Assembly (NCBI RefSeq): GCF_017502485.1
Contig: NZ_JAFVUX010000023.1
Location: 9,497 to 73,496, forward strand
Reading direction: 5' to 3'
DNA from: Helicobacter sp.
GTDB lineage: Bacteria > Campylobacterota > Campylobacteria > Campylobacterales > Helicobacteraceae
Length of the DNA: 64,000 nucleotides
This document shows, piece after piece, positions 48,001 through 51,000 of the stretch. The first letter of the stretch is position 1; each line of letters begins with the position of its first letter. The position numbers were made by a program.

Positions 48001-51000
48001 AAAACGCACTTTATGAGGAGGTAAGCTAATGCTAAATATCAAAAAACTTCAAAACATTATGCGCAACGACGCAGGAGTGAATGGCGATGCGCAAAGAATG
48101 GAGCAAATCGCGTGGATTTTATTCCTAAAGCTTTATGATTATTATGAAAAAGAATGGACTGCCCTAAATGAGATGAATGGCACGGAGTATCACTCTATAA
48201 TCCCCGATCATTTGCGTTGGGAGTCTTGGGCAGTGGGTGAAAAGTCCCCCACAGGTGAACCCTTACTCACATTTGTTAATAACGAGCTTTTCCCCACGCT
48301 AAAAGCCTTAAACATTACAGAATCCACCCCCTTACATCAATCCATCGTGCGAAAAGTTTTTGAAGATTTAAACAACTATATGAAAGACGGCTATCTTTTA
48401 CGCGAAGTGATAAACGAGATAGAATCTAGCCTTGTGATTAACAATAGACAAGATTTTAAAGAGCTTTGCAAAGTCTATGAAAGCTTTTTAAAAACCCTGC
48501 AAAGTGCAGGGAATGCGGGGGAGTTTTACACGCCGCGTGCCGTTACAGAGTTTATGGTAGAAATGCTTAGCCCAAAGCTAGGTGAGAGTGTGGCGGACTT
48601 AGCTTGCGGGACAGGGGGCTTTCTCATTTCAGCGGCACATTTTTTAGAAAAGCAAGTAAATCTCACAAGCGATAGAAAAGTCTTTGAAACAAGCTTTTAT
48701 GGTGTAGAGAAAAAGTCCTTGCCTTTTTTGCTTTGTGCGACAAATTTACTCATTAACGGCATAGAAAATCCAAACCTAAAGCACGGCAATGCCTTTGATT
48801 TTAGTAATTTTGAAGACTTTGATATAAATCTTACAAAATACCCTAAATTTGACATTATCCTAATGAATCCTCCTTATGGAGGTAGCGAACTTGCAAAAGA
48901 TATTAAAACTTTCCCCCAAGAATACAGAAGCAGTGAAACAGCAGATTTGTTTATGGCACTCATTATGCATCGACTATCTTTCAAAGGCAAGGGCGCAGTC
49001 GTGCTGCCTGATGGCTTTTTGTTTGGTGCTGATAATGCAAAAATCAATCTCAAAAGAAAGCTTTTAAGTGATTTTAATCTCTATCTTATCTTACGCCTAC
49101 CTAAAAGCGTTTTCGCCCCTTACACTTCTATCCCCACAAATTTACTTTTTTTCAACGCCGACCCACAAGGCACAAGCCAGACCCACTTCTATCGCCTTGA
49201 TATGCCTGAAAATATAAAATCCTTTGGCAAAACTAAGCAAATGCAAAAAGAGCATTTTGCCCCCTTTTTGCAGTGGTGGCAAAGCGATAGGCAAAGCTTA
49301 CAAGATGAAAGCGGGAATTTCAAGGCTAAGTCCTACACTAAAGAAGAGCTAGAATCTAGGAATTATAACTTTGACTTATGTGGCTATGTGAGCGAAGAAG
49401 AAGAGATTCTAGACCCCTTAGAGCTTATGGAGCAAATCAAAGCCGAGCGAGATAGGCTAAACGCCACGCTAGATTCTATAATGAAGCAAATTTCTCAAAT
49501 CATCAAGGATAATGAATAATGAAAACAGATACTTTAAAGAAGTCCTTGCTAGACTATGCCATTAAGGGTGGCTTAAGTGCTAGATTCCGCCGAGAAAATA
49601 ATGGGCTTAACGCCTTTGATGAGCTTGAAGTGTATAACGATGAGATAAGAGAAAAACGCAAAAAGTTAGAAAAAGAGTTAAAAAAATGTGAAAAAGAATT
49701 CAAGCTTGAAAAAGACAAGGACAAAAAAGCCCTTGTTAAATCTCAAATCCAAATGCTAAAAAAAGAGCTTACAAAATGCAAAGAAATCACGCCCTTAAAC
49801 CTTAGCGAAGCACCCTTTGCAATCCCAAATTCTTGGGCGTGGGTAAAACTTGGGGATATTTGTGAGATTTTTACAGGGGATAGCATTAACGCCACAGAAA
49901 AAGAAAAAAAATTCACGCATCAAACAAGCGGACTAAATTATATCGCCACAAAAGATTTAGCAAACGACACAAGCATAACTTACGAAAATGGCATAAAAAT
50001 CCCCGATGAATTTCTATCTTTTTTTAAAATCGCAAAGGCAAATTCTACTTTACTTTGTATAGAAGGCGGTAGTGCGGGGCGAAAAGTTGGTTTTTTAAAA
50101 GAAAATGTTTGCTTTGGTAATAAGCTTTGTTGTTTTGAAAATATTTTTGCTTTTTCTAAATTTGTATTTTATTTTTTACAAAGTGGAGAATTTTCAAAAG
50201 AATTTAACTCTAATATTAACGGCATTATCGGCGGAGTAAAAAAAGAGAGTATAAGACATTTTCTTATCCCCCTGCCGCCGTTATGCGAACAGCAAGAAAT
50301 CGTGGGAAAACTTGATTTGCTCACTACACTCGCAAATGATTTTGCTATGACTAAAGAGAATTTAAAGAGAATTTAAAGAGAATTGAAAAGAGAATTGAAA
50401 AGAGTTTGCTTAAACTTGCCCTAGAGGGCAGTCTAAGCAAAGGCTATCGCAGAGCCTCCCCCACACTCTGTGCCTTTGATGAAATCAGCACTTACAACGA
50501 TAAGATAAAAGAAAAACGCAAAAAGTTAGAAAAGAAGCTCAAAATTTGTGAAAAAGAATTCAAGCTTGAAAAAGACAAGGACAAAAAAGCTCTTGTTAAA
50601 TCTCAAATCCAAATGCTAAAAAAAGAGCTTACAAAATGCAAAGAAATCACGCCGCTAAACCTTAGCGAAGCACCCTTTGCGATCCCAAATTCTTGGGCGT
50701 GGGTAAAACTTGGGGATATTTGTGAGATAACTATGGGGCAATCCCCTGAACAAAATCAATTTATAGATTTTTCGCCTACGGCTCAAAATGACAAAAGGGC
50801 TTGTCATACTGAGCGAAGCGAAGTATCTTATTTTGAATTTCATCAAGGTAAAATTTTATTTGGAGAAAAATTTATAGAAAAATCTAATATTTTTGTTAAA
50901 GGGGCTGTAAAGGTTGCAAATACAAATTCTATACTTTTATGTGTTAGGGCACCTGTTGGAATTGTGAATATTACACAAAGAAAAATTGCAATAGGTAGGG

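Follow-up and report, generated by a model that had tools for sequence, protein, structure and literature searches.

A compound 11-bp and 12-bp tandem repeat splits hsdS in a Type I restriction-modification operon of Helicobacter and varies in copy number among Helicobacter and Campylobacter alleles

The hsdS gene of a Type I restriction-modification (R-M) operon from Helicobacter sp. is split by a tandem repeat with a unit length of 11 bp. The operon lies in the window, which is the whole 64,000-nucleotide stretch that was analyzed (assembly GCF_017502485.1, contig NZ_JAFVUX010000023.1, positions 9,497 to 73,496). Coordinates are given in the numbering of the window unless another locus is named, and the parts of the operon described are on the (+) strand. 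The repeat unit is not divisible by three, it is present three times, and it sits inside hsdS between the two target recognition domains (TRDs), in the central conserved helix. The array shifts the reading frame, the junction that results from removal of one unit matches that of intact homologs, and alleles with an added 11-bp unit or with different numbers of an adjoining 12-bp unit recur in nature. The account that we consider somewhat probable is that the array is a slippage hot spot, that in its state with an additional unit (+11) the two-TRD subunit, and hence the bipartite specificity, is lost, and that this change can be reverted by the loss of one unit (-11).

The 11-bp array and its reading frames

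The array is built from one short core that repeats with two different periods. Positions 50350-50409 read ACT, AAAGAGAATTT, AAAGAGAATTT, AAAGAGAATTG, AAAAGAGAATTG, AAAAGAG, TTTGC. The three tandem 11-bp units occupy 50353-50385, with AAAGAGAATTT at 50353-50363 and again at 50364-50374 and AAAGAGAATTG at 50375-50385, and AAAAGAGAATTG follows directly 3' of the third unit at 50386-50397. Tandem Repeats Finder reports a period of 11, 4.4 copies, and a score of 75 for 50352-50400, and this is the top-scoring tandem repeat of the whole window. A repeat search found an exact 22-nt block that recurs at an offset of 11, which corresponds to 33 bp of perfect 11-bp periodicity. The core is the 10-bp sequence AAAGAGAATT, which is present four times with spacers of one or two nucleotides (T, T, GA, and GA), and it thus gives rise to two periods at once, one of 11 bp that is out of frame and one of 12 bp that is in frame. 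The 12-bp repeat consists of 2.5 copies of AAAGAGAATTGA at 50375-50404 and encodes (KRIE)x2 in the central helix, and its first unit is common to the 11-bp array. An earlier note on this DNA had described in-frame 12-bp (EKRI)x2 repeats next to the 11-bp array, and they are present as described.

The third unit places a TAA in frame at 50374-50376 and shifts TRD2 to a different frame. The first open reading frame (ORF1, 49519-50376, 285 aa) ends with ...FAMTKENLKRI* at this TAA. It encodes the N-terminal helix, a helical-hairpin linker, and TRD1, it breaks off ~29 residues into the central helix, and it matches Pfam Methylase_S with an E-value of 7.5e-16. The second frame (ORF2, 50355-51230; Methylase_S, 2e-19) contains the rest of the central helix, the second linker, TRD2, and the C-terminal helix. 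It is open from 50355, where it begins REFKENLKRIEKRIEKSLLKLALEGSLSK, passes through TRD2 to a stop at 51228-51230, and reaches the canonical C-terminus ...TLDTLFTLKKGLRRE. The earlier note had located the end of ORF1, the TAA, and the start of the second frame at these same positions, and its coordinates and peptide readings were all correct. Three or more units keep the in-frame TAA, and a single unit gives a TGA. From the reading frames, exactly two units are predicted to encode the full two-TRD subunit, and no other number of units would be ON.

Intact alleles

Deletion of one 11-bp unit in silico gives an uninterrupted HsdS, as the earlier note had claimed. The repaired protein has 566 aa, and its junction is the one found in natural intact alleles. 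A search with the repaired protein returned more than 100 full-length homologs, most of them from Campylobacter upsaliensis and the others from C. vulpis, C. felis, H. cinaedi, and uncultured Helicobacter. The repaired junction TKENLKRIEKRIEKSLLKLALEG is present in 119 of 124 intact homologs, including those of conspecific strains, and the remaining five are without one EKRI. An alternative repair by insertion of a single nucleotide would give (xKRI)x3, and this was rejected as the ancestral form because the reading with the 11-bp deletion is the one shared with the intact homologs.

The locus is intact in other strains of the same species. Five metagenome contigs (L001-L005) have the neighboring genes of the window with flanks that are 98.6-99.7% identical, and they carry intact two-unit hsdS genes encoding 565 or 554 aa. 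One of the proteins from these contigs, P0001, has the TRD1 of the window and a different TRD2, and therefore strains of the same species differ here by TRD swaps and by the 11-bp unit. ORF1 differs from the N-terminal half of P0001 at 7 of 285 positions. A split hsdM in conspecific L003 was also considered, and it was rejected since it is an N-gap in the scaffold.

An AlphaFold2 (AF2) model of intact P0001 has one unbroken helix, residues 255-298, across the junction. A short helix (residues 3-15) lies at the N-terminus and another helix (531-550) at the C-terminus, and the linkers form two helical hairpins. The best structural matches of the model are solved HsdS structures (5ybb_D, 1yf2, 3okg, and 2y7c). 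The mean predicted local distance difference test score (pLDDT) is 72.9, and TRD2 is poorly modeled (pLDDT below 50 for residues 400-516), so the model was used for the helices only.

Recurrence of the additional unit

The array was compared with 24 related loci. A comparison of related strains had been proposed in the earlier note, and it found two-unit intact genes in the conspecific strains, unit counts of one, two, and three, and split alleles scattered among nearly identical intact ones. One unit is present in L008/L009, two units in the intact alleles, and three units in the window, L006, L018, L019, and L007. C. upsaliensis (the isolates L006 and L018, and L019) and H. bilis (L007) have the identical three-unit array on hsdS genes whose TRDs and genomic context are different. 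All five independent three-unit alleles examined, including that of the window, keep ORF2 open to the canonical C-terminus ...TLDTLFTLKKGLRxx. At least four other metagenome assemblies have the split allele of the window, with the same TRDs, as their consensus. A protein search with TRD1 alone returned proteins up to ~1.75 times the length of the query and gives no ratio of split to intact alleles; a limit on length then served to list truncated ones. In the search restricted to shorter proteins, at least 14 distinct 90% clusters end with ...TKENLKRI, and they include at least six TRD1 types.

The sequences around the array suggest where the additional unit of the window came from. Compared with intact L001, the flanks of the window array have no differences in 75 bp upstream and three differences in 330 bp downstream. 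Compared with foreign three-unit alleles, they have 7-11 and at least 30 differences. The extra unit therefore arose on the species' own haplotype or was patched into it as a segment of no more than ~80 bp.

Comparisons of split and intact alleles in other strains point to repeated events. L018 (split) and L024 (intact) of C. upsaliensis are one locus with 98.2% identity, and the sole indel in hsdS is the 11-bp unit. Split alleles are 2-10 aa from some intact allele, as against 8-22 aa from one another. One TRD1 class comprises 44 alleles, seven of them split, and these require at least five state changes on a neighbor-joining tree, compared with 6.6 for random placement. The split state is scattered among alleles that are about 98% identical to intact ones, which means that the change happens often and is mostly recent. 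The evidence of recurrence from these comparisons is strong, and it indicates a real, recurrent hot spot of probable slippage in hsdS.

Other copy-number states are also found. In the one-unit allele of Helicobacter L008/L009 the array reads ACT AAAGAGAATTG AAAAGAG, which gives TKEN*, and there is one 12-bp unit. This allele has decayed, with an ORF2 of only 152 codons and, in L008, a fragmented hsdR. The hsdR gene is also fragmented in the three-unit locus of H. bilis L007. Another protein that ends with TKEN, P0327, was rejected as a one-unit allele because it stops at a contig end. The 12-bp unit is present once in five proteins (P0018, P0031, P0036, P0085, and P0098), twice in 119 proteins, and six times in L011. 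In L011 (H. bilis isolate 37372_8, ~6117-6200) the six consecutive 12-bp (KRIE) units make the central helix 16 residues longer than usual; this locus ends soon after the array. A scan of the Joint Genome Institute (JGI) metagenomes for the array pattern gave no matches, and a scan of the GTDB species representatives found two loci only and gives no population frequency. The ratio of nonsynonymous to synonymous polymorphism (pN/pS) of TRD2, measured against the H. bilis copy, is 0.40, a value that is uninformative on selection since the split.

Proposed mechanism

The two periods of the array suggest two kinds of slippage. The earlier note had read hsdS as inactivated by, or switchable through, slippage of repeat units, and those parts of its interpretation that could be checked were supported. 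Where cores one 11-bp step apart mispair by strand slippage or recombine unequally, 11 bp would be added or removed and the frame would change, and slippage between cores one 12-bp step apart would add or remove 12 bp, equal to four residues of the helix. The window allele would have gained one 11-bp unit, giving three instead of two. With the third unit, translation would stop after ...TKENLKRI and TRD2 would be out of frame, so that the normal two-TRD specificity subunit would not be made. Bipartite specificity for methylation and restriction is most likely lost in the window allele, to judge from its reading frames. Loss of one unit would restore hsdS exactly. ORF2, hsdM, and hsdR are all intact, suggesting that the split state is recent and/or reversible, or that it is tolerated. 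From these comparisons we infer that slippage is the mechanism, that the enzyme with TRD1 and TRD2 is abolished, and that reversion occurs at a useful rate.

Several findings weigh against this account. The split allele is the consensus in several samples and may be stable in this lineage. Three units make a very short tract, and among the examples cited in PMC7383803 a three-unit tetranucleotide tract varied at a rate of only ~1e-6. Recombination in the conserved regions of hsdS is evidently frequent, and some of the scatter of split alleles could come from short-patch transfer rather than from new slippage. The conspecific intact alleles have TTG AAG where the window has TTA AAG, and therefore the window array is not a simple duplication of those alleles. 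A two-unit version of the exact TRD1 and TRD2 combination of the window was not found among the compared alleles. The split might also not be a null mutation, as the layout of ORF1 is that of the natural one-TRD S proteins P0160 and P0289, and in the intact protein the partner helix is interrupted anyway by the natural N- and C-termini, at a roughly corresponding place. Finally, the consensus assemblies of 4-5 samples invariably have three units in this allele.

Alternative explanations

The product of ORF1 might be active by itself. If it formed a homodimer and together with HsdM recognized a palindrome of the TRD1 half-site, the two-unit and three-unit states would be two active specificities. 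Homodimers of truncated HsdS proteins with one TRD are active in EcoR124I, EcoDXXI, and NgoAV (PMC3874165; PMC7383803) and also in a Staphylococcus aureus system (PMC6158711). ORF1 keeps the natural N-terminus, and its architecture is shared with P0160 (278 aa) and P0289 (292 aa), the second of which adjoins an intact hsdM and is found on four contigs. In addition, many three-unit alleles persist alongside an intact hsdM. However, ORF1 retains only ~29 of the ~46 residues of the central helix, while every proven half-S protein has the whole central helix. According to a 2013 review, homodimers of this kind were unreported outside type IC (PMC3874165), and at the locus of P0289, itself a natural half-S protein, hsdR is fragmented. 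An active ORF1 homodimer thus appears unlikely.

R-M systems are often lost from lineages, and the split could simply be a loss of function, without regulatory meaning, at a site that mutates readily. The system would then be in the process of being lost, and reversion would be too rare to matter. The presence of the same split allele as the consensus in several samples and the tract of just three units are consistent with this, as are the decay of ORF2 in the one-unit L008/L009 allele and the fragmentation of hsdR in L008 and in H. bilis L007. On the other hand, hsdR, hsdM, and ORF2 are all intact in the window, and the three-unit state is scattered over alleles whose remaining sequence is 98% identical to that of intact ones. 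Simple loss is also considered doubtful.

A third possibility is that nothing is switched off. ORF1 and ORF2 could both be made and could join non-covalently as a two-piece S subunit with the original TRD1 and TRD2 specificity. The basis for this proposal is that chain ends can be moved in known HsdS proteins. Circular permutants of the HsdS of EcoAI, a type IB system, accept new termini in the conserved regions (cp91 and cp380; Janscak and Bickle 1998, described in PMC3874165), and the N- and C-terminal halves of EcoDXXI HsdS restore wild-type activity when they are co-expressed (PMC3874165). New chain ends in the conserved helices are thus tolerated, and the two TRDs need not share a chain. 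The natural termini in the model lie inside the partner helix (3-15 and 531-550), at a position roughly equivalent to that of the frameshift, and ORF2 is open to the canonical end in five of five three-unit alleles examined. Re-initiation may occur at a TTG at 50406, 30 nt after the ORF1 stop. This TTG is the first canonical start of ORF2 (giving 274 aa), but it has no Shine-Dalgarno sequence at a usable distance, unlike hsdR, hsdM, groES, groEL, and an outer membrane protein (OMP) gene, which have AAGGAG/AAGGGG-like sites at 5-9 nt, and separate initiation of the second half appears weak. The EcoAI and EcoDXXI constructs kept at least one uninterrupted dimerization helix per chain or broke one helix, whereas the window allele would break both near the same position. 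Judging from the model, the breaks in the two helices of the coiled coil would lie at almost one axial level, so that the chains would overlap by only a few turns. In the central helix the cut gives about 29 + 17 residues, or 29 + 10 if ORF2 starts at the TTG, and neither half has a full dimerization helix. No S subunit broken in both helices is known to work, and a functional two-piece subunit is judged improbable.

Ribosomal frameshifting was considered as a further way to reach TRD2. A T_TTA_AAG heptamer is found in the ORF1 frame at 50361-50367, and, speculatively, a -1 slip there would read into TRD2 and add 4 aa. U_UU.A_AA.G is among the efficient -1 motifs in E. coli, and even the best heptamers reach only ~0.3% when unstimulated (PMC4066793). 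The window heptamer has no stimulator within range, as the sole nearby hairpin (50405-50441) starts 37 nt downstream, which is too far. The motif is genuine, but frameshifting was rejected as the main account because of the low unstimulated efficiency and the distance of the hairpin.

These possibilities can be combined. The compound array could be an evolved contingency locus with two registers, in which 12-bp steps tune the recognition gap and 11-bp steps toggle between the two-TRD form and alternative active forms, shared horizontally between Campylobacter and Helicobacter. Three alternative forms are conceivable: a homodimer of ORF1 that recognizes a palindrome, ORF1 and ORF2 joined as a two-piece subunit, and a full-length protein with KENLKENLKRI... 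made by a -1 slip. If this were true, the array would give one Type I system several specificities; we give it little weight. A sequencing or assembly artifact is effectively refuted: short repeats can be miscalled, but nothing specific favors this here, the 33-bp array is far below read length, and assemblies of independent isolates as well as metagenomes, from three species in all, carry the identical array.

Comparison with known systems

Repeat tracts between the TRDs of hsdS and switching between full-length and truncated forms are already known, for example in the poly-G switch of NgoAV from Neisseria gonorrhoeae (PMC7383803). A survey of repeat-containing hsdS genes in REBASE covered units of 1-9 nt in tracts of three or more (Atack et al. 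2019; PMC7383803). NgoAV and the surveyed genes are like the window gene in having a tandem repeat between the TRDs with a unit not divisible by three, and its copy number sets whether a full-length or a one-TRD protein is made and varies among strains. The window gene differs in having an 11-bp unit and a tract of only 2-3 units. It also differs in that hsdS would be ON at one copy number only (two), since the extra unit itself carries a stop codon. The truncated product ends within the central helix rather than beyond it, and the host system is type IB-like, not type IC.

The 12-bp repeat has a counterpart in the TAEL repeats of the type IC systems EcoR124I, EcoR124II, and EcoDXXI. Both are in frame, both encode four helix residues in the central conserved region, and both vary naturally in copy number (one, two, and six here). 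In contrast to the EcoR124 group, the window system has an EcoAI-type HsdR, the repeat is KRIE/EKRI rather than TAEL, and the in-frame repeat is fused to an out-of-frame 11-bp repeat of the same core. The earlier note had proposed that the four-residue repeats vary in number and affect specificity as in EcoR124-type systems. The variation in number is borne out, but the system is EcoAI/type IB-like by its HsdR, and the effect on the gap is an analogy. With precedent in type IC only (PMC3874165), the number of four-residue repeats may change the length of the recognition gap in the type IB-like family as well.

The principle of such switching is known, and what is new is the site and its compound architecture, with an 11-bp unit, a single ON number, and a fused 12-bp repeat. 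No description of the 11-bp hsdS site in C. upsaliensis or Helicobacter was found in the searched literature.

In a Type I system the specificity subunit determines both the methylome of a strain and its restriction barrier. An array that breaks hsdS and restores it exactly would be a cheap way to drop and regain restriction specificity in enterohepatic Helicobacter and C. upsaliensis, and this would affect DNA uptake and phage sensitivity. The states of the array could alter methylation across the genome. Annotation pipelines will label the split alleles as pseudogenes or as two "restriction endonuclease subunit S" genes, and knowledge of the 11-bp site allows them to be seen as states of one gene. 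Surveys of phase-variable R-M systems limited to units of 9 nt or less (mono- to nonanucleotide in PMC7383803) probably overlook the 11-bp site. The natural series of one, two, and six four-residue repeats is a ready test of the rule relating helix length to gap length outside type IC.

Operon and host

The hsdR-hsdM-hsdS operon carries the expected domains, with Methylase_S found twice by Pfam. The hsdR gene (45597-48029) is intact and encodes an 810-aa restriction subunit of the EcoAI/FtnUII (type IB) family with the Pfam domains HSDR_N, ResIII, and EcoEI_R_C, and it is equal in length to hsdR in the conspecific loci L001-L005. The hsdM gene (48029-49519) is also intact and encodes 496 aa with N6_Mtase (2.4e-59) and HsdM_N domains. 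The start of hsdM overlaps the stop of hsdR, and the start of hsdS overlaps the stop of hsdM (ATGA). A gene for a Crp-family regulator and groES/groEL flank the operon. HsdR has a full-length match to NCBIfam NF046051, the EcoAI/FtnUII equivalog, with a score of 752.9 bits and a cut-off of 550. The score above the cut-off and the EcoEI_R_C domain therefore make the system type IB-like, and by its HsdR it is classified with EcoAI and not with EcoR124 and type IC. The GroEL of the window falls in a 90%-identity cluster that bears the names Helicobacter canis / H. zhangjianzhongii, and the host is a Helicobacter from the group of these two species.

The system has relatives in both genera. The 90%-identity cluster of HsdM has 568 members and spans Helicobacter and C. 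upsaliensis, with most members from C. upsaliensis, and the hsdR and hsdM DNA is ~90-91% identical to that of H. bilis and H. zhangjianzhongii. Together these results imply that the system has recently passed from one genus to another. In C. upsaliensis and H. bilis there are two small genes of 74-90 aa and 61-91 aa between hsdM and hsdS (L006 3557-4004, L007 3530-4004, L018 3057-3504, and L024 2982-3504), and the window operon is without them. The second small gene has a weak ParE_toxin match in L007, L020, and L024, and the pair is probably a toxin-antitoxin pair.

Layout of HsdS and other repeats

The N-terminal ~115 aa of HsdS recur centrally, but ~26 conserved helical residues also follow TRD2. 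The type IB domain order used for comparison is D2-S1-D1-S2, with the N-terminal conserved region repeated centrally and none after S2. The residues that follow TRD2 therefore place the termini of HsdS inside D2, an arrangement that has been described for type IC and for the EcoAI cp91 permutant (PMC3874165). At the DNA level, a repeat search found a 236-bp direct repeat with one copy at 49633-49868, in the N-terminal conserved region and linker hairpin, and a second, 94% identical copy at 50493-50728, in the central conserved region and second linker hairpin. The natural one-TRD S genes (P0160 and P0289) resemble products of recombination between repeats of this kind, and so does the H. cinaedi allele P0031, which is without most of the second linker.

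Two other sequence elements were observed in hsdS. An A8 homopolymer is present in the TRD1 of ORF1 at 49904-49911, and the C. upsaliensis homolog P0152 (138 aa) is frameshifted exactly at this site (..ATEKEKNSLIKQAD). The A8 tract is a possible second slippage site in hsdS. A segment of ~65 bp encoding FSPTAQNDKRACHTERSEVS, at ~50764-50828 inside TRD2, recurs several times within the hsdS of H. bilis, with copies in L007 at 4294-4338, 4603-4687, 5345-5372, 5577-5640, and 5661-5684. The linker hairpins of the long homologs P0022 and P0034 are filled by peptide stretches related to this segment, which seems to be a short repeated element with in-frame insertion into hsdS. Tandem repeats elsewhere in the window are 12 bp x2.7 at 42799-42830, 15 bp x3.9 at 57114-57172, and a 9-bp GGM repeat in the tail of GroEL at 53386-53417.

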